Below are positions 4,708 to 31,327 of a stretch of 64,000 nt of DNA, piece after piece. Position 1 is the stretch's first letter. Each line of letters starts with the position of its first letter. The DNA comes from an uncultured virus (IMG/VR IMGVR_UViG_3300042319_001124) (Duplodnaviria; Heunggongvirae; Uroviricota; Caudoviricetes). The notes under the pieces are model-generated. The model saw nothing but the letters and a program-made list of their open reading frames with translations. It searched no databases and was not told the origin of the DNA. A program made the position numbers and the translations under genes. The stretch lies in IMG/VR virus record IMGVR_UViG_3300042319_001124; one strand, given 5' to 3'.

Positions 4708-4983
4708 ATGGCAACAATTGCAGAAGTTAAAGCAGGATTAGGAATCTCTACACTTAGTTTGAACACAGTTAAAACAGCTGCTGGAGAGAGCACAAGTTGG
4801 TTAAAGCACTGGGATAACTCAGAGCGAGTAGCTGTGTTGATACACAGAGATACTCTAGATGCCATTAAGGCAAATAGAGGAGTTGCTTCATTGGGGATAA
4901 ATACCCAAGTTAAACAGGGAGCAAAGGGAGAATACGTGGCGAAGACCATTGTGCTCTACAAAGAAGCAGAAGAGACCTTATAG
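4708..4983 (+). CDS. Early protein, paralog 2 of 3
   Basis: WLKHWDNSERVAVLIH...KQGAKGEYVAKTIV...EETL. Confidence 0.85.
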   Translation: MATIAEVKAGLGISTLSLNTVKTAAGESTSWLKHWDNSERVAVLIHRDTLDAIKANRGVASLGINTQVKQGAKGEYVAKTIVLYKEAEETL

Positions 4984-15216: not shown

Positions 15217-15419
15217 AAACTTGGATAACAACTAAAATTCACAATCATTGTGATCAAATCTTAGAGATACAACCAAATCCAGAATTTAATGGAATTGAAA
15301 TTTATTTTTCAGAAGGAGACCTTACAAATACAACAAATGCTTACTATATAGATAAAGATGAGCTACCTGTAGTTCTCAAAAAACTTCAAGAAATGATGGA
15401 TTATGTCTCAAACAAGTAA
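15213..15419 (+). CDS. Hypothetical protein
   Basis: ATGA overlap. Confidence 0.6.
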   Translation: MKTWITTKIHNHCDQILEIQPNPEFNGIEIYFSEGDLTNTTNAYYIDKDELPVVLKKLQEMMDYVSNK

Positions 15420-15669
15420 AACACCTATACATTACACAGAAATCTTTCAGTTTTACTTACACACTCCTCTTGCAATATTTGATAATGCTCCAGAAGAACA
15501 AGTATTACAAGATTGCTATGAAATGGAAGCTATTCCTTTAGTTATTCTTAAAAGTAACACTAATAGTTTGTTTAGAAAATTAGAACAGGACTTTGAAAAG
15601 AAAGGAGTCACACAAAAATTAACTTCAATTGTCCTATGTATAGGATATGAAAAACCGTATTTAGCATGA
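15403..15669 (+). CDS. Hypothetical protein
   Basis: 88 aa in operon. Confidence 0.6.
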   Translation: MSQTSKTPIHYTEIFQFYLHTPLAIFDNAPEEQVLQDCYEMEAIPLVILKSNTNSLFRKLEQDFEKKGVTQKLTSIVLCIGYEKPYLA

Positions 15670-16934
15670 GAAAGTATTTTAGAGAGTTAGAGGTACTCTT
15701 CCAAAACCCAAAATCAATTCTGACCTATATTGACAAAATAGAAGCTTTAAGAGAGAATATTACTGAACCTCTTGCTGTTACTGAATTTGTAAATAAAGTT
15801 AGAGAAAAGGTCCAGAATGAAGCTATACAAGCTGTCATTGATAATAATGGAGGAATGGTAGCTATGGCTACAGGTTCAGGTAAGTCAAGAGTAGCAGTAG
15901 AATTAGCTAAATATTACTGTGAACCTTTCTTTTCTGATACTGCTTTATTAGTACCCACTGAAAAGCTTAGAGATGAAAATTGGGCAGAAGAGTTTAAGAA
16001 ATGGAATGCAAATAGCTTGTGGGAAGAGACTACAAGATTGTGCTATGCTTCTGCTTCTAAAATATCTGAAAAAGATTTTGAGTTAGCTATTCTTGATGAA
16101 GGTCATAACATTACAGAGTTGTCTTCTGAGTTCTTCTTAAACAATAAAGTAAAGAGAACTGTGTTACTTACTGCAACTCCTCCTGAAAACTTAACTAAAG
16201 TAGAAATACTTATTCAGTTAGGTATTAAACTTGTTTATGAATTAACTTTAGATCAAGCAGTTAGATTAGGTTTTGTAGCTCCATATAAGATTACTGTTGT
16301 TACTATTCCTTTAGATAATGTAACAAAAAACATTAAGGGAGGCAACAAAACTAATCCTTTTATGACTACAGAGTTTAGTACTTATTCTTATTGGACTAAG
16401 AGGATACAATCTTGTATGTCAGACTCTTCACCTCAAGGCAAAGCCAAAATGAAATTTGCAATATTAGGTAGAATGCAGTTTATCTATAAGTTACCTTCTA
16501 AAACTGCAGTTATTAAATACTTGCTAAATAAGGTTATTCCTGAAGATGATAGAACTATCATTTTTTGTGGTAACATAGAACAAGCTGAACAAGTTTGTCC
16601 TACATTTTATCATTCTAAGTCAGGTAATGTAGCTTATGATGCTTTTAAAGCAGAAGAAATCAACAGGTTATCTTGTGTAAAAGCTGTAAATGAAGGACAT
16701 AACTTTCCTGGAGTTGATTCAGGTATTATTGGTCAGCTTAATTCTAAGGAGAAAGATTTGGTTCAAAGAATTGGTAGGTTAATTAGGTTTAGACCAGGGC
16801 ATGAAGCTCATCTTTATATCTTAGTTTCTGAAGGAACACAAGATGAAAAATGGCTTGAAAATGCTATTGAAAATCTAGACCAATCAAAAATTGAGTATAT
16901 CAGATTCACTAACCTTAAAAGCAGATTTGAATGA
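15666..16934 (+). CDS. Superfamily 2 (DExH) helicase
   Basis: MATGSGKS, LDEGH, LTAT, NEG, QRIGRLIR. Confidence 0.9.
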   Translation: MRKYFRELEVLFQNPKSILTYIDKIEALRENITEPLAVTEFVNKVREKVQNEAIQAVIDNNGGMVAMATGSGKSRVAVELAKYYCEPFFSDTALLVPTEKLRDENWAEEFKKWNANSLWEETTRLCYASASKISEKDFELAILDEGHNITELSSEFFLNNKVKRTVLLTATPPENLTKVEILIQLGIKLVYELTLDQAVRLGFVAPYKITVVTIPLDNVTKNIKGGNKTNPFMTTEFSTYSYWTKRIQSCMSDSSPQGKAKMKFAILGRMQFIYKLPSKTAVIKYLLNKVIPEDDRTIIFCGNIEQAEQVCPTFYHSKSGNVAYDAFKAEEINRLSCVKAVNEGHNFPGVDSGIIGQLNSKEKDLVQRIGRLIRFRPGHEAHLYILVSEGTQDEKWLENAIENLDQSKIEYIRFTNLKSRFE

Positions 16935-17155
16935 GTGTAGTAGCTATCTACAAGTATCTTGGCTTAGGTAAATTTAAACAAGTAGCCAAAGAAGATGTTA
17001 AAGAGATAACCAATCCAAGTGCTGTGTGTACTGTGGATAGAGTTATGGTCTTACAGAGTTTTAATCAGAGTTTCAAACTAGAAGAAGTAAAAGAAATTAC
17101 TGAATTTGTTAAATCTTTAAAAAAGAAAAAGAATGGAAATAAATCCACAAATTAA
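16931..17155 (+). CDS. Hypothetical protein
   Basis: ATGA overlap. Confidence 0.6.
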   Translation: MSVVAIYKYLGLGKFKQVAKEDVKEITNPSAVCTVDRVMVLQSFNQSFKLEEVKEITEFVKSLKKKKNGNKSTN

Positions 17156-17675
17156 GTCAGTACTTGCACAATATGCAATACCTGTAGATGATGGTCTTGC
17201 TTATCTTTTGTCTATTTTCTTTAATTGTAGACCATCTTATACTCCCCCTTTATTAGTACAAAGAATGAATGTAACAAACATTCTTGGTATTGATGATAAC
17301 AGAGAAGTTATTTGGCATGTTCCTCTATTTATAGGAGAAAACCAAAGTAAATGGGATTGGGTTATGGAATGGAATGAAGAGTTTAAAAGAGTAAATCCAA
17401 AGAGAAAAGGGTCTAATAAAGACTGTATTACAAGAATGAAGGCATTCTTTGCTGATAATCCTGATGTGAGAAAAGAGGAAGTTATCGGAGCAACAAAGAT
17501 GTATTTTAGAAGCTTGTCTAGTGCAGAGTATATTATTAGTTCTCATTACTTTATTAGTAAAGGAGTGGGAAGAGACAGAACTTCAGCATTATTGGGCTGG
17601 GTAGAAAAGTATAAGGAAGCAATTTCTGATACCTCTAGCAATAATACTGCTGACATAACTTCAATGATGCAATAA
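17133..17675 (+). CDS. Hypothetical protein coupled to DnaB (possible loader or initiator)
   Basis: TAATG overlap with the helicase; function inferred from position only. Confidence 0.6.
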   Translation: MEINPQIKSVLAQYAIPVDDGLAYLLSIFFNCRPSYTPPLLVQRMNVTNILGIDDNREVIWHVPLFIGENQSKWDWVMEWNEEFKRVNPKRKGSNKDCITRMKAFFADNPDVRKEEVIGATKMYFRSLSSAEYIISSHYFISKGVGRDRTSALLGWVEKYKEAISDTSSNNTADITSMMQ

Positions 17676-18937
17676 TGAATTTTAGAGCAGCATTTGAAGC
17701 AGGTCAAAAAGGTAGTAATAAAGGTCTTCCTATGGGGGAGGGCCTTAAGACTATCTCACAGGCAATTAATGGAATCCAAAGAGGAAGAATCTACACTGTT
17801 GGTGCTGCCCCAAAGGGAGGGAAGTCAACTTTAGTAGATGTAGGTTTTTGTATAGAACCTGCCATCTATGTATTGGACCATAATGCCAAAATTAAAGCTT
17901 CTATGGAAGTTTTAGCCACTAGACTTGAAACAGTAACTGATGTTGACACTAGACATTCTCTTAATTTAGAGTATGAACAGTTAAATAGAAAGTTAATTGA
18001 TGTTGAGTTTATCTACAATTCTTATGAGATTGATAGAGTAAGTAAAGAGTTTGATTTTGTAGCCCATTTTCTGAACTCAGATTATGGTATTTATGAAATA
18101 AATTTACCTACTGGAAAGACTTATAAGCAAAAAAATGTTGTATCTTTATCCTCCGCTTTCCTAAAAGGCGAGTTAGAATATGATACTACAAACCCTGATG
18201 ATCCTAAAGAAGTTATCAAAGTTTCAAATGAATTGCTTGATCAAATCAAGAATGTTTATAGAAACAGGATAGTCCCTCTTTTTGGAGAATACAATGACAA
18301 GGGAGAAAAAGTTTCTAAGGGATTAATTAAGTTTTTGGAAATCAAAGACAATCCTACTGGAGTTAGAAATTATCTCATTGAGTATGCTAAAGAAAATGGT
18401 GAGTTTCTGTATAGAACTACTGTCAAGGATGGGGTAACCTTTCAGAGAATGATTGGTTATAGACCTAATAATCCTGCTAAGTATGTTATTATCATTACTG
18501 ACCACTTAAGAAAGCTACTTCCTGAGAGAGGTTTCAAAATGAAAGAAACTGTAGATAAATTCTCAGAATATGCTGTAGAGTTTAGAAACACTTGCAATTT
18601 TACTTTTGTGCACATTATCCACCTTAATAGAGCACTAAGTGACATTGGAAGAAGGCAATTTGATGATGACAGATTGTTTCCACAATCTGATGATATCAAA
18701 GAGACAGGTAATCTTAGCGAGGATAGTAATTACATCTTCACTATGTTTAATCCAAATGATGACAAGTTTAACTTGTCTAAGCATTTTGGTAAGGCAATTA
18801 GAAGACCTGATAAATCTCTTTTATATCCTTTTATGAGAACTATACATTTAGTTGAGTCTAGGCATTGTGTTTGTCCTCAACACTTTAGAGTCAACATGTA
18901 TGGTGATGTTAAGAAGTTTGAACCTTTAACTATTTAA
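17675..18937 (+). CDS. dnaB: DnaB-like replicative helicase
   Basis: GAAPKGGKST Walker A, IIITDH, IIHLNR, DIKETGNLSEDS. Confidence 0.85.
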   Translation: MNFRAAFEAGQKGSNKGLPMGEGLKTISQAINGIQRGRIYTVGAAPKGGKSTLVDVGFCIEPAIYVLDHNAKIKASMEVLATRLETVTDVDTRHSLNLEYEQLNRKLIDVEFIYNSYEIDRVSKEFDFVAHFLNSDYGIYEINLPTGKTYKQKNVVSLSSAFLKGELEYDTTNPDDPKEVIKVSNELLDQIKNVYRNRIVPLFGEYNDKGEKVSKGLIKFLEIKDNPTGVRNYLIEYAKENGEFLYRTTVKDGVTFQRMIGYRPNNPAKYVIIITDHLRKLLPERGFKMKETVDKFSEYAVEFRNTCNFTFVHIIHLNRALSDIGRRQFDDDRLFPQSDDIKETGNLSEDSNYIFTMFNPNDDKFNLSKHFGKAIRRPDKSLLYPFMRTIHLVESRHCVCPQHFRVNMYGDVKKFEPLTI

Positions 18938-18946
18938 AATTACAAA

Positions 18947-19657
18947 ATGGCAAAAGTGCTAGTATTAGCCCCAAGTGGGTTTGGTAAGTCCACCAGTATA
19001 GGACAGATTCCTGAATTGGGAATCAAAGGTTTAAATCCAGAAGAAACGTATTTGATTTCAGTTACTTCTAAACCTCTTCCTTTTAGAGGAAGTGGAGCAG
19101 CTTATCCTATTACTACTGCAGCTGATTTAAAATCAGGCAGAAGAGTAATCACTGATAACGCAAAAGACATAGAAACCATCTTTTTAAACTTAGTAAACAG
19201 TCCATACAAAAACATTGTGTGGGATGATTCAAACTATGTAATGCAGAATTGGTATATGGCTAATGCTTTAGCAAAAGGTTGGGATGCCCCTAAACAAATT
19301 GGTTTTATGATGGGTAAAATATTTGACGCTATTGAGAAACTAGATGCTGCAGGTAAAAATGTAATCATCTTAGCTCATGGTGACAGTGTTGCAGGCCCTG
19401 ATGGTAGAATCTACATGAAGTATAAATCTACAGGTAAGATGGTAGATGAGTATTTGACTGTAGAGGGTAAAGTAGATGTTACTCTTATTGGTATTAGTAG
19501 ATATGATGCTACTGAAAAGAAAGCTGTAAAAGAGTTCTTAACTAATGAGAATGAGCAATATTCTTCAGCTAAATCACCTATTGGTATGTTTGATAAACAA
19601 TTCATTCCAAATGATTTAGGGTATGTAACTGATAAAATCGCTGAATATTATGGATAA
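18947..19657 (+). CDS. P-loop ATPase (AAA_24/Sak4-like)
   Basis: APSGFGKSTS, VWDD, ILAH, AKSPIGMF. Confidence 0.8.
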   Translation: MAKVLVLAPSGFGKSTSIGQIPELGIKGLNPEETYLISVTSKPLPFRGSGAAYPITTAADLKSGRRVITDNAKDIETIFLNLVNSPYKNIVWDDSNYVMQNWYMANALAKGWDAPKQIGFMMGKIFDAIEKLDAAGKNVIILAHGDSVAGPDGRIYMKYKSTGKMVDEYLTVEGKVDVTLIGISRYDATEKKAVKEFLTNENEQYSSAKSPIGMFDKQFIPNDLGYVTDKIAEYYG

Positions 19658-19838
19658 TGGATTATTGCTTATAGCTTCTGTAATAGGAGTTATAATAGGA
19701 AGCCTTGTTACTATTGTTAGCCTAGCTTTATTAAGAAAAGATGCTCCTAGACAAGAAGAAGAAGCTACTCTTACTCTTACTTTAAAAGATGCACCTATTA
19801 AGAAAAAACCAGGTAGACCAAAAAAAGTTAAAATTTAA
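19650..19838 (+). CDS. Membrane-anchored protein with AT-hook-like tail
   Basis: N-terminal TM helix; C-terminal KKKPGRPKK. Confidence 0.55.
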   Translation: MDNGLLLIASVIGVIIGSLVTIVSLALLRKDAPRQEEEATLTLTLKDAPIKKKPGRPKKVKI

Positions 19839-19854
19839 TTAAACATTAGAAAAA

Positions 19855-20154
19855 ATGTCACAAGAAAAAATTCAAATTACTTTGTCAGTATTGACAGAAC
19901 AAGTTAATGCAGGTATGAAAAAAACTGCTTTAGCTCAACACTATGGCTTGAAAGAGTCTCAAATGACTAAAGTTTTACAAGCTGCAGGTCTTAAAATCAG
20001 AAAATTTCATGCACCAGTTTTTGAATTGGTAAATGATTTGAATGAAACTGAAGCTCCTCAAGCACAAGTAGAAGAAGTTACAAATCAACCTTTACTATTT
20101 GATGCTATAGAAGAAGAAGCACATGCTCCTGAACCAGTTGAAAATTGGAGTTAA
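19855..20154 (+). CDS. Small HTH-like protein with acidic tail
   Basis: GMKKTALAQHYGLKESQMTKVL. Confidence 0.6.
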   Translation: MSQEKIQITLSVLTEQVNAGMKKTALAQHYGLKESQMTKVLQAAGLKIRKFHAPVFELVNDLNETEAPQAQVEEVTNQPLLFDAIEEEAHAPEPVENWS

Positions 20155-20187
20155 TAAATTGTTTAATTAAATAAAAGAAGACTAGTT

Positions 20188-20961
20188 ATGTCACAATTAC
20201 AAGGATACGGATTTGTATCAGATTCAGATGAATCATTGAAAACCAAAAGTGGAGCAAGATTTGGTGGTAACTTTGGTGTTGCTACATTAGCAAAATTTGC
20301 TTATTCTCCTAATGTTGCTAAAGAAGGACAAGAGCCAAGAGAGGCTATTGAAATTGAATTGAAAGTAGGAGATAGAAGTTACAAAGAGTGGATTAATCCT
20401 GTAAATCGTGTTGTTGATAAAAACAATGCTGAGATTACAGATAAAGCTTCTGCAGAGTATATTGCAGGTTTTAACACTCTAGTAAATCAGCAAAATGCTA
20501 CAGTAACTCACTACTTAAAATCAGTAGGTGTAACTGAAGAAGCACTTAAAGCTGCATTTATTAACCCTGTAACTGGCTTTGCTGACTATGCAACAAGAAT
20601 TTGTTCTTTATTACCTATGGGTTATAACAACAAACCTCTTGACTTGTTCTTAGAGTACCAATGGAATTTTGGTAAGAAACAAGATGGAACTATGAATGAT
20701 AAAACTTATCCTACTTTGCCTAAGAACATGAAGGGTGGTTATTTCATTGTTCCTGCACAACCTGGAGTTTGGGTTGAGAAAAGAGCTGAAGATGGTTCTT
20801 TATCTTATGAGAACTCTAATGGACAGAAACATCCTTTTGAAAGAGATGCTAACTTCATGACAGGTAACAAAGGTACTCAACAAGTATTAGGTCAAGCTTC
20901 TGCTGCAGCTTCCCCAATGGGAGTAGCATCAGTAGCAGGTAATGCTGCAGGTAACTGGTAA
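20188..20961 (+). CDS. Putative ssDNA-binding protein
   Basis: Lies between the AAA ATPase and primase; flexible tail ending in W; function inferred. Confidence 0.5.
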   Translation: MSQLQGYGFVSDSDESLKTKSGARFGGNFGVATLAKFAYSPNVAKEGQEPREAIEIELKVGDRSYKEWINPVNRVVDKNNAEITDKASAEYIAGFNTLVNQQNATVTHYLKSVGVTEEALKAAFINPVTGFADYATRICSLLPMGYNNKPLDLFLEYQWNFGKKQDGTMNDKTYPTLPKNMKGGYFIVPAQPGVWVEKRAEDGSLSYENSNGQKHPFERDANFMTGNKGTQQVLGQASAAASPMGVASVAGNAAGNW

Positions 20962-20986
20962 TAAATTAATTTAATCCTCTTCTATT

Positions 20987-22033
20987 ATGAGCCCATATCA
21001 ATTTAATACAGATAACTTAGATAGAAGAGGTTTTATTAGTAAAGAAAGCATCTTACAATTAGTTTCACAAGAAGAGATATTCAAATTAGTTTTTGGATTT
21101 ATTCCTGTTGAATTTGACCTTGTTCACTCTCCTTTAAGAAAGGATAGGACTCCAGGGTGTTGGTTTGAATACCACATGGAAAAACTTAGATTCATAGATT
21201 TTGCTAATTCTAATGTTGTTAAAGGTATTAAGCTTTCCAATATGGATTGTTTTGATATGGTAACAGTTTATTTTAATCTTCCTAATTTCTATTTGACCCT
21301 TGAATTTATCTATAACTCTTTAATTAAAGGGAAAGAAATATCAAGACCTATAGTAAATAATACAGGGATAGTTAAAGAGGCTAAACCCAAAGTCAAAATC
21401 CTAATTGAAAGTAGACCTTTTAGTATTGCTGACAGAGATTATTGGAAGCAGTATGACATTAAGAAGAAGGATTTGATAGAAGATAAAGTTTTTCCTGTCA
21501 AAAAGTTTTATGCTTTAAATACAAGAGCAGGTCACATTATATCTGATTGCCATGATTTGGCATATAGTTATAATGATTTTCCTGAAGCAAGAAAAAAGCT
21601 TTATTTCCCTATGAGAACAGGTAAACAAAGATTCCTTACTAATTGTACAAAGAATGATATAGGTGGAATTACTTCATTGTTGACGTATGGTAAAGAATTA
21701 ATAATTACAAAGGCTTATAAGGATTATAGAGTGCTGAAGAACAGTGGTAAGAATGTAATATGGTTTCAGAATGAAGGTATGATACCAAATGATACTATCA
21801 TAAACAGATTGGTTAATCATTTTGAAAACATCATTGTCTGGTTTGATAATGACCAGGCTGGTATTACAGCTTCTGAAAAGATCAAATTACATATCAATAA
21901 CATTGTTCCATGTAAAGCAAAGAATTTATGGCTTCCTGAAAGAGGATTAGAAGTGGGAATTAAAGACCCTTCTGATTGTATAGCAAAAGACAAGCAATAT
22001 TTTTATCAATTTTTAAAAGATTTTACGAGGTGA
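20987..22033 (+). CDS. DNA primase (TOPRIM)
   Basis: SPLRKDRTPGC at the N-terminus; IITK..KD, WFDNDQAG, KDPSD. Confidence 0.85.
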   Translation: MSPYQFNTDNLDRRGFISKESILQLVSQEEIFKLVFGFIPVEFDLVHSPLRKDRTPGCWFEYHMEKLRFIDFANSNVVKGIKLSNMDCFDMVTVYFNLPNFYLTLEFIYNSLIKGKEISRPIVNNTGIVKEAKPKVKILIESRPFSIADRDYWKQYDIKKKDLIEDKVFPVKKFYALNTRAGHIISDCHDLAYSYNDFPEARKKLYFPMRTGKQRFLTNCTKNDIGGITSLLTYGKELIITKAYKDYRVLKNSGKNVIWFQNEGMIPNDTIINRLVNHFENIIVWFDNDQAGITASEKIKLHINNIVPCKAKNLWLPERGLEVGIKDPSDCIAKDKQYFYQFLKDFTR

Positions 22034-22569
22034 ACTTTAAACATATTCATCATTCATGGAAACCTCTTATGAATGAATTTAATACAGATGCTTTTCTTTA
22101 CTTTAAGAATGAAGTATTACCCCAAGAGAAATATTACCCTGAAGCTGATGAAGTCTTCAGGGTTTTTTCTATGCCTGTGTATAGTATCAGAGTAGTGATT
22201 GTAGGTAGATTTAAGCAATTAGACTTAGCCCCTAAAGATATAGAGGGCGTATTTAGGCTACCCATTTCCTTAACACAAGGTGCAGACACAGACCATACAG
22301 AACATTGGGAACCCTTCATTAAAAAGGTTATCTATTTTATTGCAAAAACAAATTCTTGCATTTGGGTTATGCCCACAACAGAAGCACAAAGATTTACAGC
22401 TAATCTACCTGGAAGATCTATTTTTAATGTGCTAAGATACACAGATGACAGCATCCAAGGTATCCCAACAAGTGTAGATTACAATTACATCTTTAAAGGC
22501 AAATATGTCAACTTAGACCATATTAATGTCATATTAAAGAAACTTAGAAAAAAAATAATTAACTGGTAA
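22030..22569 (+). CDS. Uracil-DNA glycosylase homolog with degenerate active site
   Basis: HHSWK, YYPEADEVFRVF, RVVIVG and HWEPFIKKVI match family-1 UNG, but GQDPY and HPSP are absent. Probable GTG start overlapping the primase stop. Confidence 0.7.
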   Translation: MNFKHIHHSWKPLMNEFNTDAFLYFKNEVLPQEKYYPEADEVFRVFSMPVYSIRVVIVGRFKQLDLAPKDIEGVFRLPISLTQGADTDHTEHWEPFIKKVIYFIAKTNSCIWVMPTTEAQRFTANLPGRSIFNVLRYTDDSIQGIPTSVDYNYIFKGKYVNLDHINVILKKLRKKIINW

Positions 22570-22587
22570 TTTTAAATTTAAAATCTC

Positions 22588-23193
22588 ATGAGAGAAATCA
22601 CTATTTATGCCACTAGAGGTGGTAACACACAGAAAATTAGCACTGATGTAACAACTTGGGGAGAATTGCAACCTTTAGTAAGAAATGCAGGTTTTGACTT
22701 GTCTTCTTTAATGGCAGCAGAGAATGTTAACAAGACAGACCTTGTTAATGATTTAGCAGTATTGCCTTCAAGTGACTTCAGATTATTCTTGAGACCTAAA
22801 CAAACTAAATCAGGTTCTGATAGAAAAATTCTTTTTGAAGCTATCAAAGAGTTTACTAAACAAAATCCTGATAAGAAAGGTTGTTTTGTTGTTGAAGGCA
22901 GAAACATGACTCAGTTAGCTACTTCTGTATTAGAAGATTTATACAACAGCATCATTGCAGCAGAAATGCAACAAGCTAGAGCTGAAGTTAAATCTGTAGC
23001 TGTAGAAGAAGCTGATGATGTTACTCGTGTACTTCAAGCTAGAAACACTATTGCTCCTTTATACAACTATGATAATTTTGACAAAGCTGACAAAGCTTTG
23101 AAGAAATTAGGTAAAGAAGCTAAAGGTTATCTTCCTAAGACTAGTACAGAAGAAGATGATTTGGCTAGAGAAGCTAGAGAATTAGGTTATTAA
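22588..23193 (+). CDS. Ubiquitin-like (beta-grasp) protein with C-terminal extension
   Basis: Residues 1-76 show a beta-beta-alpha (TWGEL) ... beta (FRLFLRP) pattern ending KQTKSG, followed by a 125-aa helical tail; adjacent to E2, JAB and E1. Confidence 0.7.
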   Translation: MREITIYATRGGNTQKISTDVTTWGELQPLVRNAGFDLSSLMAAENVNKTDLVNDLAVLPSSDFRLFLRPKQTKSGSDRKILFEAIKEFTKQNPDKKGCFVVEGRNMTQLATSVLEDLYNSIIAAEMQQARAEVKSVAVEEADDVTRVLQARNTIAPLYNYDNFDKADKALKKLGKEAKGYLPKTSTEEDDLAREARELGY

Positions 23194-23201
23194 TATTAAC
23201 C

Positions 23202-23231
23202 AAAGGGCTTGTGAAATACCAAGCCCTTTTT
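23202..23231 (+). terminator. Intrinsic terminator or attenuator between Ubl and E2
   Basis: aaagggcttg-tgaaatac-caagcccttttt. Confidence 0.7.
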
Positions 23232-23243
23232 AATTTTTAAATT

Positions 23244-24449
23244 ATGCATAGTATTGATGAAACTATTGTATTCAGACCTTCAAGTCTAATACAGCGTTAT
23301 TTACTTAATGCTGAAAATGTAGGGATTCATAGACAAAGACCTGTTATTGAATTTGTATTTCGTAAGTATTTATCTTTTAATATTTATGAAGATGATTTAG
23401 AAGACTGTATTGAGCAGTTTGTAGAAATTACAGAGTTATTTTACAACAAATACAAAGCAAATGTTTCTTTAGGTTTTAGAAAAGTAGATGATAGAACCTT
23501 GTTTGAACCTTTCTTTAAAGTAATTTATCCTGAAATAGTTATTACTAATTCTAATAGGAAATCTCACACTATAAAAGACCTTATTGTAGTTCATACATTT
23601 TCTTATTCTAATAGTAAGTTATATCCTTTAAGACCTTTGGGTACAAGAGGTAAATTAACTCTTAAAGAAGAAGCTGCAGGTTATTTACACAGCCATTTAC
23701 CTAGTAAAAGTGATTGGGTAGATGCACCATTAAAATTAGGTACTTTTTGTATTGGTAATGATACTGATGTAAGTAGAATGTTAGCTGAAATAGAGTGTAC
23801 AGAGTGGGACATAAATAGATATGAATTGTATTTATTTTGTGTAGATACTATGATGCACTGGGAATCTTTAGAAGGTGTTCCTCATATTAGAATGGAAAAT
23901 ATTGATAATGCTTTGTCTAAAAGAGTACTTTCTTTTTCTTCTTCTTTGGGTGATAAATTAGTAGACAAGATATTGCATCATAAAATACCTTTAAATGTAG
24001 ATTTCTATGTAGATGAAGGTAGATACAAAATAGTAGCTAATGAAAAAAGTAATCTTTTTATAAAAGAACAAATACTGAACTTTATTCATCTTGACCGTAG
24101 AAGTATATTAGTCACTAGAGTTCCTAATAAATATGAAAATTACTTAGAAATGCCTTTAAATGTTTCTAGAGAAGCAAGACCAAAGAATTTTACTTCTAAG
24201 TATACTAAGTTTGGTAATACTAAATATTACCCTAGCAGAATCCTTGATGCCCCCCAAAAAAGAAATGTCGAGAATGATCTTGACAATTTTATTGTTTATC
24301 CTAAATTTTTAAATTATGTCCTTAGAGAACTCGAATATCAAATTTACAAAGCCGCAATTACCAAAAGTGCAGCTAACCTCCTTAGTCAAAGTGATAATGC
24401 CAGAAATGGTGCTGAATCAGATACAATATCTGTGCAAGTTAATTTCTAA
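23244..24449 (+). CDS. Prokaryotic E2 (ubiquitin-conjugating enzyme)-like protein
   Basis: YLHSHLP...GTFCIG corresponds to the E2 HxH/N...C(L/I)G signature (Cys codon 23748-23750); gene context supports this. Confidence 0.65.
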   Translation: MHSIDETIVFRPSSLIQRYLLNAENVGIHRQRPVIEFVFRKYLSFNIYEDDLEDCIEQFVEITELFYNKYKANVSLGFRKVDDRTLFEPFFKVIYPEIVITNSNRKSHTIKDLIVVHTFSYSNSKLYPLRPLGTRGKLTLKEEAAGYLHSHLPSKSDWVDAPLKLGTFCIGNDTDVSRMLAEIECTEWDINRYELYLFCVDTMMHWESLEGVPHIRMENIDNALSKRVLSFSSSLGDKLVDKILHHKIPLNVDFYVDEGRYKIVANEKSNLFIKEQILNFIHLDRRSILVTRVPNKYENYLEMPLNVSREARPKNFTSKYTKFGNTKYYPSRILDAPQKRNVENDLDNFIVYPKFLNYVLRELEYQIYKAAITKSAANLLSQSDNARNGAESDTISVQVNF

Positions 24450-25530
24450 AGTAGAGTGGTCAGGAGCTCTATTCTATACTACAGAGGGTAATATAGAAGA
24501 TCCTGAAAATTTTGTCATTACTCTTAAAACTATACTTCCTCTAGATATGGGTTCTCAAGCCTATACTGAGTACAATCTTGATGAAAGATTTATAGATTTT
24601 ATAGATGCAGATTTTGATGAAAGATGCACTTGGAAATTAGGGCATATCCATAGCCATAATACTATGGCAGTATTTTTCTCAGGTACAGACCTAGCAGAAT
24701 TAAATGATAATGCACCTAGCCATAACTTTTATCTTTCTCTTATTGTAAACAACTTTATGGATTTTACTGCTAAAGTTGCTTTTATTGGAGAAGCTAAACA
24801 AAGTATTAAACAGGTTCCTTTTACAGCTATGAATGTGAAGGGTCATAGTTACATTATTGAAGAGCAAGACTTTGTAGTTGATAGTAAGAAACTATTTATG
24901 TATGATTGTGATATACAGTCTCCATTAGTTTCTATTACTGTTGATGAAGATTTTGCAAATCAGGTAAAAGAGATTATGAAACCTAAACCTGTAGCTCCCA
25001 GGAATAATTATTTACCAACCAGCTATACTCCAAATGCCTGGACTAAGGGAGCCCATACAGATCCAAACAGCTCCAAAAAATTTCAAGACTATAGTCAAAA
25101 TTCTCTCTACAGTAAAAACAACTATAATCAAAGGACTTTATTTGATGACTGGGATACGCCTATGCAAGGATATGGATTAATTGAACACGAAGAAGATATC
25201 CAAAACTTATGTATGGACTTATTCAATGTGTCTAATTTAAGACTAGAACACAATGATACTTTAGAAGATATTATAGAACTTTTACAAGAAGTGCCTATGA
25301 CTCCTCAAGAGATAGCTAAAAGTGTAATTACAAATTATGCTAAGTCATTTAATAAGTATTTTCCAAAGGCTACTTCAGAAGAGTTTGTACAGTATTCAGG
25401 AGAAGTTGTTGACTTATTAGATGAACATGTAATAATGTATCCTTTTATTAAACCAAGTGTAACCACCATAGAAAATATGGTAATAAAATTCATGGAAGAT
25501 GGCACAGAATCTACAAAATTCAAGATTTAA
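24316..25530 (+). CDS. JAB/JAMM (MPN+) metallo-isopeptidase
   Basis: VEWSG plus canonical HxH-x7-S-x2-D: HSHNTMAVFFSGTD. Confidence 0.88.
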   Translation: MSLENSNIKFTKPQLPKVQLTSLVKVIMPEMVLNQIQYLCKLISKVEWSGALFYTTEGNIEDPENFVITLKTILPLDMGSQAYTEYNLDERFIDFIDADFDERCTWKLGHIHSHNTMAVFFSGTDLAELNDNAPSHNFYLSLIVNNFMDFTAKVAFIGEAKQSIKQVPFTAMNVKGHSYIIEEQDFVVDSKKLFMYDCDIQSPLVSITVDEDFANQVKEIMKPKPVAPRNNYLPTSYTPNAWTKGAHTDPNSSKKFQDYSQNSLYSKNNYNQRTLFDDWDTPMQGYGLIEHEEDIQNLCMDLFNVSNLRLEHNDTLEDIIELLQEVPMTPQEIAKSVITNYAKSFNKYFPKATSEEFVQYSGEVVDLLDEHVIMYPFIKPSVTTIENMVIKFMEDGTESTKFKI

Positions 25531-26197
25531 AGATGCTGCTTGGTTTCCTCAAGAAGAAGGAGTTACTACTCTTGTTGGTGGAGCAGGTGGTATAGGCAGT
25601 TGGTTAGCTTTTTTCCTGTCTCGGATAGGATATAAAGTTAACATTTATGACTTTGACTTAGTGGAAGACCACAATTTAGGTGGACAATTATTTACTGAAA
25701 AAGATTTAGGTAGATCTAAAGTATCTGCTGTATCTAATATGGTATATAGTTTTTCAACAAATAGGGATATAAGAACTCACGCAGAGCCTGTTACTATAAA
25801 CACTCCTACTCATTGGTTTTGTTTTTCTGCTTTTGACAATATGGAAGCAAGAAATGCATTATTTGAAGTATGGAGAAGGTCTTGGGAAATTGTTCCTGAA
25901 GGTGTTACTCCTTTATTTATTGATGGTAGACTAGAGTTAGAGCAATTACAAGTATTTTGTGTAACTCCTGAAAATGCAAATAGGTATAAAACAGAACATT
26001 TATTTGATGACAGCGTTGTAGAAGAAGCTCCATGTACTATGAAGCAAACTTCTCATACTGCAGCAATGATAGGTTCTATTATGACTGCATTTTTCACTAA
26101 TCATATCGCTAACACTTATGCAGAAGAGACTATCAGAGAAGTCCCTTTCTACTATGAATTTGTAGTTCCTATGAACTACACTTACAGTGAGATATGA
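25499..26197 (+). CDS. E1/ThiF-family adenylyltransferase
   Basis: VGGAGGIGS, YDFDLVEDHNLGGQ, AFDNMEAR, IDGR; candidate catalytic Cys in EEAPCT. Confidence 0.9.
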   Translation: MAQNLQNSRFKDAAWFPQEEGVTTLVGGAGGIGSWLAFFLSRIGYKVNIYDFDLVEDHNLGGQLFTEKDLGRSKVSAVSNMVYSFSTNRDIRTHAEPVTINTPTHWFCFSAFDNMEARNALFEVWRRSWEIVPEGVTPLFIDGRLELEQLQVFCVTPENANRYKTEHLFDDSVVEEAPCTMKQTSHTAAMIGSIMTAFFTNHIANTYAEETIREVPFYYEFVVPMNYTYSEI

Positions 26198-27057
26198 GAA
26201 TTACAAGTTATGATAGATATGGAGGGAGACCATTAGACAGGTTTAATTTAACTATGCCTGATCTTTGTCCTTATCTTCCAATTTATGCAGTGTATTTAAG
26301 TCATGCAATAGATGGAGACCACTATTTCTCTAAACCTAATTTTTATGAGGCTATTCCTAAAAGCAATACCTTGAATAATATAAAAATGGGTTTAGAAGAA
26401 TCTTTAACACCTCTGAAAATATCAGTTAATTCCAATACTCTTTATTTTGTTAAAGGTGCTATATATGATGCACTGTATAATCCTTTACTTATGTTAGCAA
26501 GTAAAGAAAACAAATTTGTATCTCATGATGAGAGATATGAAAACTTCTCCTACAATAATTACGTTTTATTTTATTCTACTTCTTTTTTTACTAACCCAAA
26601 TTTAAAAGCTCTAGACAGAAGACTTCAAAAAGAAATATTACTGTCTTGTTATCAAAAAGGTATAGAGGTCAGATTAGTTACCTCTCAAGAAATTGAAAGA
26701 AATACCTTTACAAGACTATTTGAAGTCAAGAAAACTAGTTCAATTAATCAACTAGATATGTACATGAAAGCAGTATTACCTAATTTTATCTATACAGGAA
26801 ACGAGGACTATCCTGAAGAACAAAAGAGAGTAATAATTGCCCCTATTTCTGAAACTCTTTCTTTAGAAGAAGAAGCTTTGCTATTTGATGCAGGTGCTTC
26901 TATTAATATAGAAGAACTTCTAAGAGAAGAGAGAAGAGAAGAAATGGAAAACTACATAGCCCAGCAGAGAACTACCCATATAGAAACTGCAGTGATCAAT
27001 TCTACTATTTTAGCAGAAAGAGACACATGGAGATTAGTTGATGATTTACAGAACTAG
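26194..27057 (+). CDS. Hypothetical protein translationally coupled to E1
   Basis: ATGA overlap; 287 aa with acidic C-terminal region. Confidence 0.7.
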   Translation: MRITSYDRYGGRPLDRFNLTMPDLCPYLPIYAVYLSHAIDGDHYFSKPNFYEAIPKSNTLNNIKMGLEESLTPLKISVNSNTLYFVKGAIYDALYNPLLMLASKENKFVSHDERYENFSYNNYVLFYSTSFFTNPNLKALDRRLQKEILLSCYQKGIEVRLVTSQEIERNTFTRLFEVKKTSSINQLDMYMKAVLPNFIYTGNEDYPEEQKRVIIAPISETLSLEEEALLFDAGASINIEELLREERREEMENYIAQQRTTHIETAVINSTILAERDTWRLVDDLQN

Positions 27058-27099
27058 TAAGGTATTTAAGTTTTTATTAATAATCCTTAAAAATCTTAT

Positions 27100-27612
27100 A
27101 TGGGAATTGGAGCCACAAACAAAAGAAAGGGTAGTACTGCAGAAAGATACTATGCCAAATTCTTTAGAGAATTAGGTTTTAATTTCTGTGAAACTGCCCG
27201 ATTTGGAAGTAAAAAACATGACAATGCAAAGATTGACTTGTTGTATATTCCTTTTAATGTGCAAATTAAAGCAGGTGTACAAAAGAACATGAATCCTGGG
27301 AAGGAATTATTTATGATGTCCACCTCTATTGCTGCAATGTTTCCCCCTGAAGATGAAGTTTCTAAAAGACCTTGTATATTGTTTCATTACAAGCAAGGTA
27401 AGCCTGGAGCAAGAAGAACTCCAGACATGGAAATGGTTTATATGTCTATGATACAGTTTGATGTATTTAGAAGTATAAGTCCTAACTTACAGTATTCTAT
27501 GATGAAAGACTTTAAGTTTGACTTAGATTCTGAATTTAAGACTATAGTAGGAATGACTTTAGACCATTTCAAAGAAGAAGTAATCATTAAACAGTATGTA
27601 ACATGCCAGTAA
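27100..27612 (+). CDS. PD-(D/E)XK Holliday junction resolvase-like nuclease
   Basis: NKRKGSTAER, KIDL, NVQIK. Confidence 0.7.
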   Translation: MGIGATNKRKGSTAERYYAKFFRELGFNFCETARFGSKKHDNAKIDLLYIPFNVQIKAGVQKNMNPGKELFMMSTSIAAMFPPEDEVSKRPCILFHYKQGKPGARRTPDMEMVYMSMIQFDVFRSISPNLQYSMMKDFKFDLDSEFKTIVGMTLDHFKEEVIIKQYVTCQ

Positions 27613-28769
27613 TTGTAGCCACAAAAGAAGAAGTACAAGAGTACTATGAATCTGATGCATTAGGTCAGTCTAAATTAAAACTGTTGTTAGGAGATTTGTC
27701 TTCTTTCAACAAAGAGTTTGATTCTTCTGCAGAACACTTTCTAATAGGTTCTGCAGTAGATCAAATATTAACCTCTTCAGTAGAGGATTTCAGTAACTCT
27801 CATTATATCTCAGAGGTAAGTAAATTACCTTCTGATGCTATTATAGAGATATTGAAACTTGTATATGAAGATGTATTGCAAGATTATGCTGAAAGCTTAG
27901 AAGTTATAACAGCAGATGAATCTCTGCCTGTTACCCCATTTTACGAGTTTGTAGGAGAACTTGCTCATTGGGGAGCTTATATTTTAGATGCTTGTGAAAA
28001 AACAGGATGGCAACCAAGATGGGGTGCTGATGCTAAACTTAAGAATATTACAGAACAAGGTTCTGAGTATTTTATAGATATGGCTAAAGCTTTGGGTAAA
28101 ACTGTAATCAGTACTACTCAAGCCAATCTTATTGCAGATGTTGTTTCTTCCTTGCAGAATAATCCTAGAACTGCAGGATTCTTTGACAGACATATTTATT
28201 CAAACTTACCTGATATTACAGTGTATTATCAGTTTCCAATATACTTTGAGTATAGAGGAGTAGAATGTAAGGCTTTGTTAGATATTGTATTTGTTGAAAG
28301 AACTGAAGAAGGTAAAATTATTTCTATTACAGGTGCAGATTTGAAAACTATGCATGGTAATACTTATCATTTTACATCTAGTATTAAATCTAGAAGATAT
28401 GACATTCAAGCTGCTTGGTATACTCTTGCACTACAAAAACATTTTGCAGTCCCTGAAGGCTCTGATGTTATTAAACCTTTCCAATTTGTAGTAGAATCTA
28501 CTACATATCAAGGAAAACCTTTGAATTTTATAGTTGCTGACAGCCTTCTTGGCATAGGCAGATTTGGTAGAAGAGCTATTTCCCTTCATGAAACAGACAT
28601 GTTTAATGGAGATGGTATGGCAAGTGCTATTATTCAATATGAAATCAAAGGCTTTGAACAACTCTTAGACCTTTACATTTATCATTCTGAGAATGGTTTT
28701 AGTGAAGAAAGAGAAATTCAAGAAGCAGGTTTAAAACCATTAGTTGTTGATTGGGATGGTATTGTCTAA
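27603..28769 (+). CDS. PD-(D/E)XK exonuclease (RecE/ExoVIII-like)
   Basis: GSAVD, CKALLD, DLKT, YDIQAAWY. Confidence 0.8.
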   Translation: MPVIVATKEEVQEYYESDALGQSKLKLLLGDLSSFNKEFDSSAEHFLIGSAVDQILTSSVEDFSNSHYISEVSKLPSDAIIEILKLVYEDVLQDYAESLEVITADESLPVTPFYEFVGELAHWGAYILDACEKTGWQPRWGADAKLKNITEQGSEYFIDMAKALGKTVISTTQANLIADVVSSLQNNPRTAGFFDRHIYSNLPDITVYYQFPIYFEYRGVECKALLDIVFVERTEEGKIISITGADLKTMHGNTYHFTSSIKSRRYDIQAAWYTLALQKHFAVPEGSDVIKPFQFVVESTTYQGKPLNFIVADSLLGIGRFGRRAISLHETDMFNGDGMASAIIQYEIKGFEQLLDLYIYHSENGFSEEREIQEAGLKPLVVDWDGIV

Positions 28770-28785
28770 AATAGCAGAATCAGGT

Positions 28786-29391
28786 ATGGAAATTGAGATT
28801 GGGAAATTGTACTCTAATAAAACTTTAAAGTATTTAGTTCCTGCTCTCAATTACTATGGGCCTACTCTAAAGACTAAGTTAAACTTAATCTTTAAATTGG
28901 CTTTTGGTGTTCATGATACACTCTTAGAAGGTTCTTACCTAGAAGGTCAAAAGAATATCTTTATTCTAGTAGACAAATTAGTAAGAACTGATTTATACCA
29001 AAACTTTATGGATTGGGTAAAGCATCAAGAGTATTATGTAACAGACTATGCTTATGATGCTATAATGGAAGCTCACAGTAGAAAGCAAATGATTGTATTA
29101 GCTTTTCCTCCTTCTATGGGAGATACTTATGAAAAGTTTCTAAAAGGCAAGTATAGCAAGATGTATACTAAAAAAGAAATCCAAGATTACTTTGGAGATG
29201 AAAACAAAGCAGCAGCTAGGCATGTATTTGCTAGAACAGTGTATGCTAGAAGAGAGTTTCAACTCAAAATCAAAGAAGTCTTTGACGTAGTTTTAGAAGA
29301 CAAGGACTTTTTAAAAGGTTCTTGGGAGTATGACCTTCCTCCTAGTAAAGAGGAAGAATTTTTTAACACTTGGAAACCTTTGGGGGAGTAA
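28786..29391 (+). CDS. Hypothetical protein
   Basis: Likely start MEIEIGK (ORF track starts at 28744). Confidence 0.65.
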   Translation: MEIEIGKLYSNKTLKYLVPALNYYGPTLKTKLNLIFKLAFGVHDTLLEGSYLEGQKNIFILVDKLVRTDLYQNFMDWVKHQEYYVTDYAYDAIMEAHSRKQMIVLAFPPSMGDTYEKFLKGKYSKMYTKKEIQDYFGDENKAAARHVFARTVYARREFQLKIKEVFDVVLEDKDFLKGSWEYDLPPSKEEEFFNTWKPLGE

Positions 29392-29422
29392 TCCCCCTTA
29401 AGTTTTCATTAATGCCTGAGAC

Positions 29423-29779
29423 ATGGAAGAAACAGAAAACATATTAAGTCCAGAGGGTTTTGAAGAAATCGTTGAACAAAGATTAAATGCTATAGGTGCA
29501 ACTCTTGTTATTAAAGGTAAAGAGTACAGAAGAAATAATGACCCTTTACACAATTTTAGAGTAGCTGCTAGAGTATTAAATACTACACAGGAAAAAGCTT
29601 TGTGGGGATTTGCTGCTAAACACTACGTATCTTTTCTAGATATGCTGAATGACATAGAGCAAGGAAACTTGCCTAAAGAAGAAACAGTCAATGAAAAGAT
29701 AGGAGACTTAATTAACTACTTGATTCTATGTGAAGCAAGTATCAAAGAAAAATTAATCTTAAAAGAATTAGATTTATGA
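29423..29779 (+). CDS. All-alpha nucleotide pyrophosphohydrolase-like protein (DUF1599/Nmad-like)
   Basis: KGKEY...DPLHNF...EKIGDLINYLIL. Confidence 0.65.
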   Translation: MEETENILSPEGFEEIVEQRLNAIGATLVIKGKEYRRNNDPLHNFRVAARVLNTTQEKALWGFAAKHYVSFLDMLNDIEQGNLPKEETVNEKIGDLINYLILCEASIKEKLILKELDL

Positions 29780-30060
29780 GAAGTCTCAATGGAAACTACA
29801 TCATTTTAAAAGAAGTCCTTACTCCTGTAGAAACAGAAGTGACTCTTTTAGAATACATAGGTAGTATTATTCGTAAAGAAAGAGTTGCTAAGAACTTTAC
29901 TCAAGCACAGTTAAGTTTTATGACAGGAGATTTAGTGTCTGGTGCTACTATTAGTCAAATAGAAACTGCAGTAACAAATCCTTCTGTAAATATTTTAGAT
30001 GCTATTGCACAAGCTTTAGATTTAGAAATCTCTGATTTATTTCCACCTAAAAACGGTTAA
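29776..30060 (+). CDS. XRE-family HTH regulator
   Basis: IRKERVAKNFTQAQLS...TISQIE...NPSVNILDAIAQAL. Confidence 0.88.
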   Translation: MRSLNGNYIILKEVLTPVETEVTLLEYIGSIIRKERVAKNFTQAQLSFMTGDLVSGATISQIETAVTNPSVNILDAIAQALDLEISDLFPPKNG

Positions 30061-30064
30061 CCTT

Positions 30065-30304
30065 ATGGGTCAAAAAATTAAAGTAGGACAATTAAATGTC
30101 AGTGTATTTTTTAGTAAATATGATAAGTTAACTAAGAAAAGAACAGAGATTGAGGGTCATGAATTGACTCACAGAGACATCAAAGCCATACATGAAGGCT
30201 TAGATAGTACTGATTTTGGAGAGTTTTATACCTACTCTGATTCAGAGAAAGAAATTACTGGAATGTTTAATGTTATAGATTCAGAACAAGAAGAAAATGA
30301 CTAG
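30065..30304 (+). CDS. Hypothetical protein
   Basis: 79 aa in operon. Confidence 0.6.
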   Translation: MGQKIKVGQLNVSVFFSKYDKLTKKRTEIEGHELTHRDIKAIHEGLDSTDFGEFYTYSDSEKEITGMFNVIDSEQEEND

Positions 30305-30482
30305 TTTACAAGAATTAGCTGTATGGGCTAAAGAAGTTAGAACAAATCATCCTCAGCATTCTTCTGAAATACTAGACTTTCTTTTTTTATGTCAAGATGA
30401 GATAGAAGGAGGAGGTTCAGAATCTCATGAAGTTCAACTTTGTTACAATGATATCTGTGATTTAGTAGGATTAGACCAGTAA
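30297..30482 (+). CDS. Hypothetical protein
   Basis: 61 aa, coupled to neighbours. Confidence 0.6.
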   Translation: MTSLQELAVWAKEVRTNHPQHSSEILDFLFLCQDEIEGGGSESHEVQLCYNDICDLVGLDQ

Positions 30483-31327
30483 TGCAAATCAAAAGACAGA
30501 AGACTAAAACTTTAGTCACTAGAGATAATGGTAGGAGCAGTGATGCTATTGCTCCTAACTTTATCTATGGCTGTTTAGGAGGGTGTATGAAATCTTATTG
30601 TTATGTGGCTAGGTATAACCATGATAAAGTCTACATTAATGAGAATACAGATGAAATTTTGTCCTCTATCCAGTCTTGGGTTGAGACTAAACCTTGGCCT
30701 AAAGTGCCAAATCAAGTAGATGACACTTACTATTGTGTAGACATAGGTTGTAGTACTGATGTATCTTTGCATCATAAACACTATGATTGGCAGTTAGTGA
30801 TGGATTTTTTCAACAATAGCCCTAAGCTTAAGACTACTTTTGCTACTAAATACCCTACTAAATTTCCAATAGTCAAGTATAACTTGACACCTGGAAAGCA
30901 CAGGATAAGAGTAAGTCTTATGCCTCAAAAGATCTCAAGTATCTTAGAACCCAATACTGACAGCATAGCTGATAGGATTGCTATGATACCTGTACTCCAA
31001 ACAAAAATGGAGGTGCACATAAATTTTAGTCCTATAGTTTACTATCCTACTTGGCTAGAAGACTATGAAGAATTGTTTCAACAACTTAAAGGATTAGAAT
31101 TTAAATCTGAGTGTATCTTTGTGACTTACAATAAGATGCAAGCTGAAAGAAATAACTCTGAAGTCAACTATTATCTGTGGCAACCTCTGATTCAAGAAGC
31201 TAAAGATTCTGAGTATGCAGCAGATAATATTAGATATGAAAGACATTTTAAGCAAAAGCTTATAAATGATTTTCAAGTGTTATACAGTAAATATTTTCCT
31301 TTAGAGAGTATCAGATATATTTTCTAA
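30482..31327 (+). CDS. Spore photoproduct lyase (SplB)-like radical SAM protein
   Basis: GCLGGCMKSYCYV, DIGCSTD, TFATK, RIRVSLMP, HINFSP, final YIF. Confidence 0.8.
   Translation: MQIKRQKTKTLVTRDNGRSSDAIAPNFIYGCLGGCMKSYCYVARYNHDKVYINENTDEILSSIQSWVETKPWPKVPNQVDDTYYCVDIGCSTDVSLHHKHYDWQLVMDFFNNSPKLKTTFATKYPTKFPIVKYNLTPGKHRIRVSLMPQKISSILEPNTDSIADRIAMIPVLQTKMEVHINFSPIVYYPTWLEDYEELFQQLKGLEFKSECIFVTYNKMQAERNNSEVNYYLWQPLIQEAKDSEYAADNIRYERHFKQKLINDFQVLYSKYFPLESIRYIF

Follow-up and report, generated by a model that had tools for sequence, protein, structure and literature searches.

A ubiquitin-like protein of a crAss-like phage, predicted to be cut from a precursor after a conserved glycine by the JAB peptidase of its own operon

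In the bacterial Type I Bub system, the BubAB pre-protein is cut by BubCD, whose JAB domain acts directly after the conserved residue G229 and thereby frees the ubiquitin-like protein (Ubl) and the E2 (Ye et al., bioRxiv 2024, PMC11601596), and in the Bil system BilC cuts BilA between G97 and A98 (Chambers et al., PMC10557695). For TAPI of phages lambda and T1, a Ubl fused to a C-terminal domain, release by the TAPK JAB at the Ub domain's C-terminal-most glycine was predicted (Iyer, Burroughs and Aravind 2006, PMC1779556); the three reports are cited here for those of their sections that deal with processing and operon make-up. We describe here a locus in the window, that is the whole stretch of 64,000 nucleotides analysed, from an uncultured virus (IMG/VR IMGVR_UViG_3300042319_001124), which is part of a crAss-like phage genome. 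The gene in question encodes a protein of 201 amino acids that starts with a Ubl, and we propose, with a probability of about 0.7, that this Ubl is made as a precursor and is cut free after G76 by the JAB peptidase of the same operon, a reading that is well supported by comparison of relatives and in which the cleavage itself is a prediction. In its predicted working the locus is like Bub, Bil and TAPI, but it is a member of neither Bub nor Bil. The parts of the locus concerned are the following.

22588..23193, plus strand: Ubl precursor open reading frame (ORF), 201 amino acids plus stop
22588..22815, plus strand: predicted beta-grasp domain of the ubiquitin-like type, residues 1-76, of which 68-76 are a flexible tail (from AF2, Foldseek and VIA)
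22804..22815, plus strand: T73-K74-S75-G76 junction, with the predicted scissile bond G76|S77 (from conservation)
22816..23190, plus strand: helical tail of 125 amino acids, residues 77-201, with a conserved helix-hairpin-helix (77-134), a variable linker and acidic C-terminal helices ending in ...REARELGY
23202..23239, plus strand: intrinsic-terminator-like hairpin (stem 23202-23229) plus T-run
23244..24449, plus strand: conserved protein X, 401 amino acids, no family assigned, with invariant S150-H151, C169, D175 and WESLEGxP (206-213)
24316..25530, plus strand: JAB/MPN (JAMM) metallopeptidase, 404 amino acids, with a C-terminal helical domain
25499..26197, plus strand: ThiF-type E1-like adenylating enzyme, 232 amino acids, single domain
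26194..27057, plus strand: variable protein Y, 287 amino acids (225-410 in relatives)

Under the proposed pathway, the JAB, encoded two genes downstream, would bind the beta-grasp and cut the G76|S77 peptide bond, releasing a 76-residue Ubl with a C-terminal glycine carboxylate together with a second fragment of 125 residues, and the small ThiF-type E1 would adenylate G76. The conserved hairpin would end or attenuate the transcript of the upstream replication genes, and X, JAB, E1 and Y would be made via read-through, at a lower level than the Ubl. If the Ubl is cut free, it would probably be transferred to a protein target, possibly with the help of X and its invariant histidine and cysteine; with clearly lower odds, it might act as a sulfur carrier in the thiocarboxylate form.

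The closest proven precedent, as described in the sections cited, is BubAB of Type I Bub (PMC11601596). As in that system, the Ubl of the window is the N-terminal part of a longer protein, the conserved glycine is single, and the operon carries a JAB/JAMM peptidase and an E1-type enzyme; in Type I Bub the JAB cuts directly after the glycine and the E1 acts on the exposed glycine, whereas in the window the same steps are predicted only. The released Bub part is an E2 (BubB), while the tail of the window protein is helical, with no E2 likeness detected; JAB and E1 form one polypeptide in Bub but are separate ORFs in the window; and Bub includes the DUF6527 serine protease BubE, to which no match was found among nine window ORFs (Pfam, E<=0.1), the same search giving no further Pfam family among the neighbours beyond weak sub-threshold hits. 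Moreover, Bub is bacterial and presumably defensive, but the window operon is phage-borne and lies inside a replication module. As far as the cited sections on BilABCD go, JAB pre-processing to a single C-terminal glycine in Bil is the design of the 76-78-residue form in a sister clade of the window family, which ends with KSG plus one or two residues (see below). Bil differs, however, in having the E2 BilB and the three-domain E1 BilD (IAD-AAD-CYS), against a single-domain E1 of 232 residues and no PADLOC match to BilB in the window, and in a propeptide of one residue in BilA against 125 in the window.

TAPI, according to the part of the report cited, differs from the window protein in that it belongs to tail assembly, has no E1, carries a glycine-rich linker and is accompanied by a JAB fused to an NlpC/P60 peptidase (PMC1779556). 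The presence of a small ThiF-like E1 without a recognisable E2 is shared with the ThiS/MoaD-ThiF/MoeB pairs, as is that of a JAB that could trim a C-terminal extension (gene neighbourhoods in PMC1779556, same part). The ThiS/MoaD carriers nevertheless end in GG, unlike the SG of the window (KSGG in the FpV4 group of phages), and Pfam and NCBIfam revealed neither a sulfurtransferase or rhodanese nor a cofactor-synthesis gene in the operon, the context of which is phage DNA replication. QbsE/QbsD and CysO/Mec are sulfur-carrier pairs with JAB trimming. In eukaryotes, Ub-eL40 and Ub-eS31 consist of an N-terminal ubiquitin of 76 residues and a C-terminal extension protein that is released after the terminal glycine, giving the two products in equal amounts; eukaryotic ubiquitin has a GG end and is freed by cysteine deubiquitinases, and the extensions are bona fide ribosomal proteins. 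Between these fusions and the window protein there is no sequence relationship beyond the fold.

An earlier note on this DNA, made from the letters alone, had described a beta-grasp ending in ...LFLRPKQTKSG at residue 76, and this description was borne out: the G76 codon (22813-22815) is GGT, within ...FRLFLRPKQTKSG|SDRK. When folded alone with AlphaFold2 (AF2) from 12 aligned sequences, the domain gave a predicted local distance difference test (pLDDT) of 82.6 and a predicted template modelling score (pTM) of 0.68. The top 50 Foldseek matches of this model in PDB were nearly all Ubl, ubiquitin, SUMO or ferredoxin folds (best E 6.3e-3, probability up to 0.98), with no PDB match reaching E 1e-3, and all 50 rows of VIA-align were ubiquitin-superfold domains matching over the whole domain, the UBL, UBX and ubiquitin chains giving Z 5.4-6.6 and a root-mean-square deviation of 2.4-3.5 A over 64-74 of 80 residues. 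The scores in both comparisons are moderate, which is usual for a domain this small (about 80 residues). In the AF2 model of the full-length protein, the last beta strand extends to residue 67, and the pLDDT falls below 50 at residues 72-75, as expected of a free Ubl tail. The models thus predict a beta-grasp at residues 1-67, a flexible C-terminal tail at 68-76 and a fused helical extension at 77-201.

A total of 603 homologues of the 201-residue protein were obtained at E<=1e-3, and phrog_15560 was matched at E 4.5e-31. Among named phages, those closest in DNA sequence are Flavobacterium psychrophilum phages of the FpV4 group, which are 68-69% identical over 36-40% of 8 kb, and homologues of the protein are also found in gut Steigviridae, including Gp79 of crAss001. 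The junction residues T73, K74, S75 and G76 are shared without change by all 25 homologues of alignment A1, which are 50-69% identical, and KSG is present in all 29 complete ORFs from 37 related viral loci, the other eight ORFs being cut by contig ends. A profile search with the domain only yielded 1039 representative clusters at E<=1e-3, and among the best 150 of these 1039, in which the junction was read, K-[S/A/G]-G was found in 140 (TKSG in 106, TKAG in 15, VKSG in 8, others in 11) and K-[L/Q]-G in four, while five were fragments or could not be placed by the junction pattern. Column entropy was at most about 1 bit at positions -3 to 0, of which -2 and 0 are fixed by the junction pattern itself, and exceeded 3 bits from +1 onward. 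The distant Steigviridae carry IKSG (crAss001 Gp79 and cr128_1) or IRSG (cr126_1). A conserved K-x-G followed by a variable tail, for which the earlier note had proposed to align homologues, is therefore found, with the variability jumping just past the glycine. Its expectation of a single glycine, not GG, holds for the window (S75-G76) but is not universal, for KSGG occurs in the FpV4 group and KGG in a few representatives. On one contig the Ubl ORF appears to be fused after KSGS to a primase (L029:5968-6404), but this was rejected as an assembly artefact at the contig end; the last 179 nucleotides of this contig repeat its positions 4922 onward, where its primase reads NTKSGS.

The most telling line for the G76 junction comes, on sequence comparison, from a natural short form of the protein in the sister clade. 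The domain profile search detected ten clusters (90% identity) of stand-alone Ubls with a length of 76-77 amino acids, and in nine of nine cases (eight cluster representatives plus one member of 78 amino acids) the protein ended with ...SG and then K, K, K, K, L, N, Q, N or EK. The first cluster has members on 34 contigs of up to 25.5 kb and another cluster is on a contig of 95.5 kb, so that these short forms are not fragments. In one such locus (L040), the order of genes is primase, uracil-DNA glycosylase (UDG), Ubl (77 amino acids), hairpin with T-run, X (460 amino acids), JAB (400 amino acids), E1 (234 amino acids), Y (282 amino acids) and a RusA-like gene, and no homologue of the tail was detected by tblastn in the 10 kb covered of the L040 locus. 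A few tblastn hits at 5106-5228 of L040 were discarded as residue of the Ubl domain left in badly trimmed queries. A conserved glycine plus one or two variable residues is the classical form of a modifier precursor, and in the window 125 residues follow in their place. Close to the sequence of the window itself, only two fragments on contigs shorter than 1 kb were found as short stand-alone forms, the true short forms being obtained via the profile search.

The complex of JAB (residues 1-230) and Ubl (residues 1-92) was predicted together with three controls. The median score of the JAB-Ubl model was 0.72 against 0.24 for the best control, thus passing a mark that 116 of 157 solved complexes and two of 215 mismatched pairs had attained, and the runs agreed in at least 51% of contacts with a partner pLDDT of at least 77. 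On the Ubl side, the interface consists of the beta-sheet face plus the tail 69-74 (residues 5, 7, 9-12, 14, 40-41, 44, 46, 49-50, 65, 67 and 69-74), and on the JAB side it includes residues 85-110, among them the zinc ligand H110, and 128-137. This model supports a binding in the manner of JAMM-ubiquitin complexes. The cut at G76 by the JAB, as claimed in the earlier note, has thus gained strong support by comparison and a passing model of the complex, although the cleavage itself is only predicted.

In both enzymes the catalytic motifs are intact. In the JAB, E47/E57, H110-x-H112, S122 and D125 are invariant in 11 of 11 aligned sequences, and a PADLOC JAB model was matched at 3.4e-4. In a profile search, the C-terminal helical domain of the JAB (25330-25527, residues about 340-404) matched a katanin-type AAA ATPase in its MIT domain at E 0.45, which is too weak to build on; MIT domains also occur in JAMM enzymes of the AMSH type. 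In the E1, the nucleotide loop GGAGGIGS, C154 and C179 are invariant, and the protein matched Pfam ThiF at E 3.8e-15, with ThiF also as the best NCBIfam hit (1.3e-14, below the cut-off of that model). Its profile hits in PDB were MccB (7.9e-7) and SAE2, UBA3 and UBA5 (about 1e-6), MccB and the E1s of SUMO, NEDD8 and UFM1 being matched about equally (8e-7 to 5e-6); in PADLOC, Cap2-type E1-E2 models gave the best match (1.8e-9), and BilD was matched at E 8.6e-4 over residues 46-122. The ThiF-annotated E1 of crAss001, Gp76 (L041:9260-10411), has 383 amino acids against 232 in the window, which indicates an extra E1 domain in Steigviridae; the gene order past the JAB also differs in crAss001, being E1, Gp75 and UDG. 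Protein X had no match in PADLOC, NCBIfam, PDB sequences or the ESM Atlas, nor in Pfam, whether searched as a single sequence or with all 11 members of its family at E<=10, and an E2 role for it, suggested by the invariant His151 and Cys169, is a guess. The Atlas model of protein Y had a pLDDT of 0.33, and its matches are meaningless.

The 125-residue tail was described in the earlier note as helical and acidic, and its length and mostly helical nature were confirmed, but it is only mildly acidic (23 D/E against 20 K/R, isoelectric point 5.1). AF2 predicted helices at 77-92, 94-100, 112-134, 144-158, 164-178 and 188-198, and in the full-length model the tail is helical with one small hairpin and with low confidence at 181-186. 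Among the long representatives, the tail varies from 114 to 210 residues (median 154.5), with a low-complexity A/P/E/K linker of variable length. A full-length VIA-wide comparison gave generic helical bundles only (residues 76-138, Z <=5.3), Foldseek found nothing in PDB for the full-length model at E<=1e-3, BFVD returned its own uncharacterised relatives only, and the full-length profile gave weak Get1 coiled-coil hits only against PDB sequences (E 0.12). With the tail seen as part of the full-length model, there was no E2 likeness in VIA-wide (Z <=5.3) or Pfam. Release of a second product, as the earlier note proposed, is plausible in that the tail is conserved, though plastic in length and content, but the sister clade is without it, and the tail is thus not core to the system. 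The end of the tail (23116-23190, residues 177-201) is composed of an acidic helix, a glycine, an aromatic or aliphatic residue and 0-3 more residues, a pattern seen in 87 of 124 long representatives, and the last 25 tail residues have a mean net charge of -4.5; we take this end to resemble the docking tail of single-strand-binding proteins. The Ubl fusion of cr126_1 (L042:1501-2427, 308 amino acids, junction KIRSG) has a ribosomal bL12 C-terminal domain inserted in its tail at residues 158-220 (Pfam PF00542, E 5.1e-12, above the cut-off), a phage echo of the eukaryotic ubiquitin-ribosomal protein fusions.

The hairpin with a U-tract that had been noted between the Ubl and enzyme genes is present, and occupies the gap between Ubl and X. 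Its stem of 10 pairs (five G-C) with a loop of eight nucleotides is followed by TTAATTTTTA, and the next ATG, that of X, is at 23244. It folds at a minimum free energy of -19.2 kcal/mol (z = -3.85), a value equalled by 0 of 200 shuffled sequences, and among the terminator-like sites in 17000-31000 it is the strongest; 17 such sites were detected there, compared with an expectation of 5.4. In each of the 25 related loci that were folded, a G+C-rich stem with a T-run is located within about 60 nucleotides past the stop codon, at least six unrelated stem sequences being represented; one locus, which was too short, and three with identical proteins were left out of this survey. A hairpin with a T-run is also present in L040 and in crAss001, the latter with a stem of about 14 base pairs followed by T9. 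The position and form are kept while the sequence changes, as expected of a working terminator, and a stem plus T-run conserved in position is the signature of a factor-independent terminator. The listed terminator-like sites of the plus strand are all at or beyond 23202, with none of comparable strength from 17000 to the hairpin, and since the gap upstream of the Ubl gene is only 18 base pairs, the hairpin is considered to end the whole DnaB-primase-Ubl unit. Since the stem is only 14 nucleotides away from the start codon of X, read-through is the simplest way for the enzyme genes to be expressed, and this would fit lower enzyme levels. A terminator belonging to the Ubl gene alone and giving an excess of Ubl was also claimed in the earlier note, and this is supported in part: the hairpin is real and conserved in position, but it would close the whole upstream replication unit rather than a transcript of Ubl only. 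A search for Bacteroidetes-type promoter motifs in 15000-30000 gave no full match; a single -7-like TAATTTTG at 23073 lies within the Ubl ORF and is uninformative.

Several observations weigh against release of the Ubl at G76. The pass of the JAB-Ubl complex may in part reflect the memory that the model has of solved JAMM-ubiquitin complexes, and the confident contacts in it end at residue 74; the JAB itself falls below the curated cut-off of Pfam Prok-JAB (E 0.0064, 16.8 bits against 25), and Pfam, PADLOC and NCBIfam identified neither an E2 or rhodanese nor any other downstream enzyme in the operon. Within the best 150 clusters, KSG is replaced by KSV in one representative (P0182). Just after the glycine, D78, R79, K80, F83, I86 and K87 are invariant in A1, and at the very end of the protein G200 and Y201 are invariant as well. 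The fused form is much commoner than the short one, since 124 of 136 representatives with the junction pattern have at least 190 amino acids, and because the residues past the glycine are conserved within subfamilies, a permanently fused two-domain protein could yield an equal pattern. It is conceivable that the Ubl protein is never cut, and that its beta-grasp is a permanent N-terminal adaptor, like UBL and UBX domains of larger proteins, through which the helical part docks on a partner such as the JAB or the E1, with KSG as a docking or hinge motif. Such an adaptor would agree with the dominance of the fused architecture, with the conservation of residues 78-120 in the close family, and with the best structural matches, which include the non-conjugated domains Ddi2 UBL (Z 6.6) and UBXD7 UBX (Z 6.2). 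We nevertheless regard it as unlikely: the sister clade keeps the operon with a protein that stops one or two variable residues after KSG, a telltale feature of processed modifiers and an indication that the tail is dispensable, the variability jumps at +1, an adjacent adenylating E1 requires a free carboxylate, and the predicted complex threads residues 69-74 toward the zinc site of the JAB.

The invariance of G200 and Y201, with variants ending in GYR or GYL, raises another idea, that the reactive end is the true C-terminus, where trimming of Y201 would bare G200 and the whole protein of 200 residues would be activated by the E1, as Cap2 does with the C-terminus of the CBASS enzyme. Homologues of the FpV4 type terminate exactly in ...KMFG, of 124 long representatives, 105 have a glycine among their last six residues and 87 a glycine that precedes F, Y, L, M or I, and the PADLOC matches of the E1 are led by the Cap2-type models. 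The terminal glycine is, however, absent from L032 (...KMFE), cr128_1 (...MFDFV) and crAss001 (...MFDFVD), cr126_1 ends with ...FGGWAQ, three residues past its Gly-Gly, and the tail-less sister clade retains JAB, E1, X and Y; furthermore, the C-terminal segment is helical, with the low-confidence stretch noted above, and the modelled contact with the JAB is via the beta-grasp (from an input of Ubl 1-92). Activation at G200 is for these reasons held to be highly improbable. As to the hairpin, it might serve as a 3' stem-loop for stability, as a site of processing or as some other RNA element, without a role in the ratio of Ubl to enzymes, downstream expression being independent. Its T-run is interrupted (TTTTTAATTTTT), its stem is close enough to the start codon of X that it could affect translation initiation of X, and, to our knowledge, crAss-like phages use their own RNA polymerases, for which terminators are not well defined. 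The recurrence of a G+C-rich stem with a T-run at the same position in every folded relative, on unrelated stem sequences, and again in L040 and crAss001, makes this alternative rather unlikely, and a terminator or attenuator is preferred.

If the release of the Ubl after G76 is correct, the pre-protein would couple the arming of a tag to the release of a second protein, and would provide a clean cleavage site. The precursor design is known from bacteria and eukaryotes, but has not previously been described for crAss-like phages: no paper was found that ties crAss-like phages or Crassvirales to ubiquitin-like systems or treats this operon, subscription journals being outside the search. A phage protein family resembling UBA5 is mentioned in the part cited of a preprint (10.64898/2026.03.05.709809). 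In bacteria, conjugation of ubiquitin-like proteins has until now been linked to defence against phages (Bil, Bub and type II CBASS), and a phage operon is the mirror case, in a very abundant phage group that includes the cultured crAss001 and FpV4 and in which as many as the 1039 representative clusters match the Ubl domain. Both crAss001 and phages of Flavobacterium psychrophilum can be grown in culture, so that a direct test of the prediction is possible. More tentatively, the replication modules of crAss-like phages, from Flavobacterium phages to Steigviridae, might hold a self-contained Ubl system without E2, in which the tag is fused to a variable cargo (a bL12 C-terminal domain in one genus) and JAB cleavage is a switch that arms the tag and releases the cargo, for modification of host or phage proteins during replication, e.g. 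in countering Bil- or CBASS-type defence.

The replication module consists of tightly packed plus-strand genes around the Ubl ORF, and the gap of 50 base pairs between Ubl and X is the largest intergenic gap of the neighbourhood. The five-gene order Ubl-X-JAB-E1-Y is preserved in every related locus long enough to show it. The other genes of the module are as follows.

17675-18937, plus strand: DnaB-type helicase, followed by an ATPase gene
20987-22033, plus strand: primase
21976-22569, plus strand: ORF of 197 amino acids between primase and Ubl
Downstream of Y, plus strand: genes for a RusA-like resolvase and an exonuclease VIII homologue

The 197-residue ORF has a TTG start and a 58-nucleotide overlap with the primase gene, has matches limited to the C-terminal half of phrog_12143, with none to a Pfam family, and sits where FpV4 and L040 have the UDG; it may be a diverged or shortened UDG. 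A longer overlap, of 134 nucleotides in different frames, is formed by the 3' end of X and the 5' end of the JAB gene (24316-24449). Both frames are conserved, as the M1-S2 start of the JAB is invariant and the C-terminus of X aligns across relatives, and an X/JAB overlap of roughly 110-135 nucleotides is also found in related loci.

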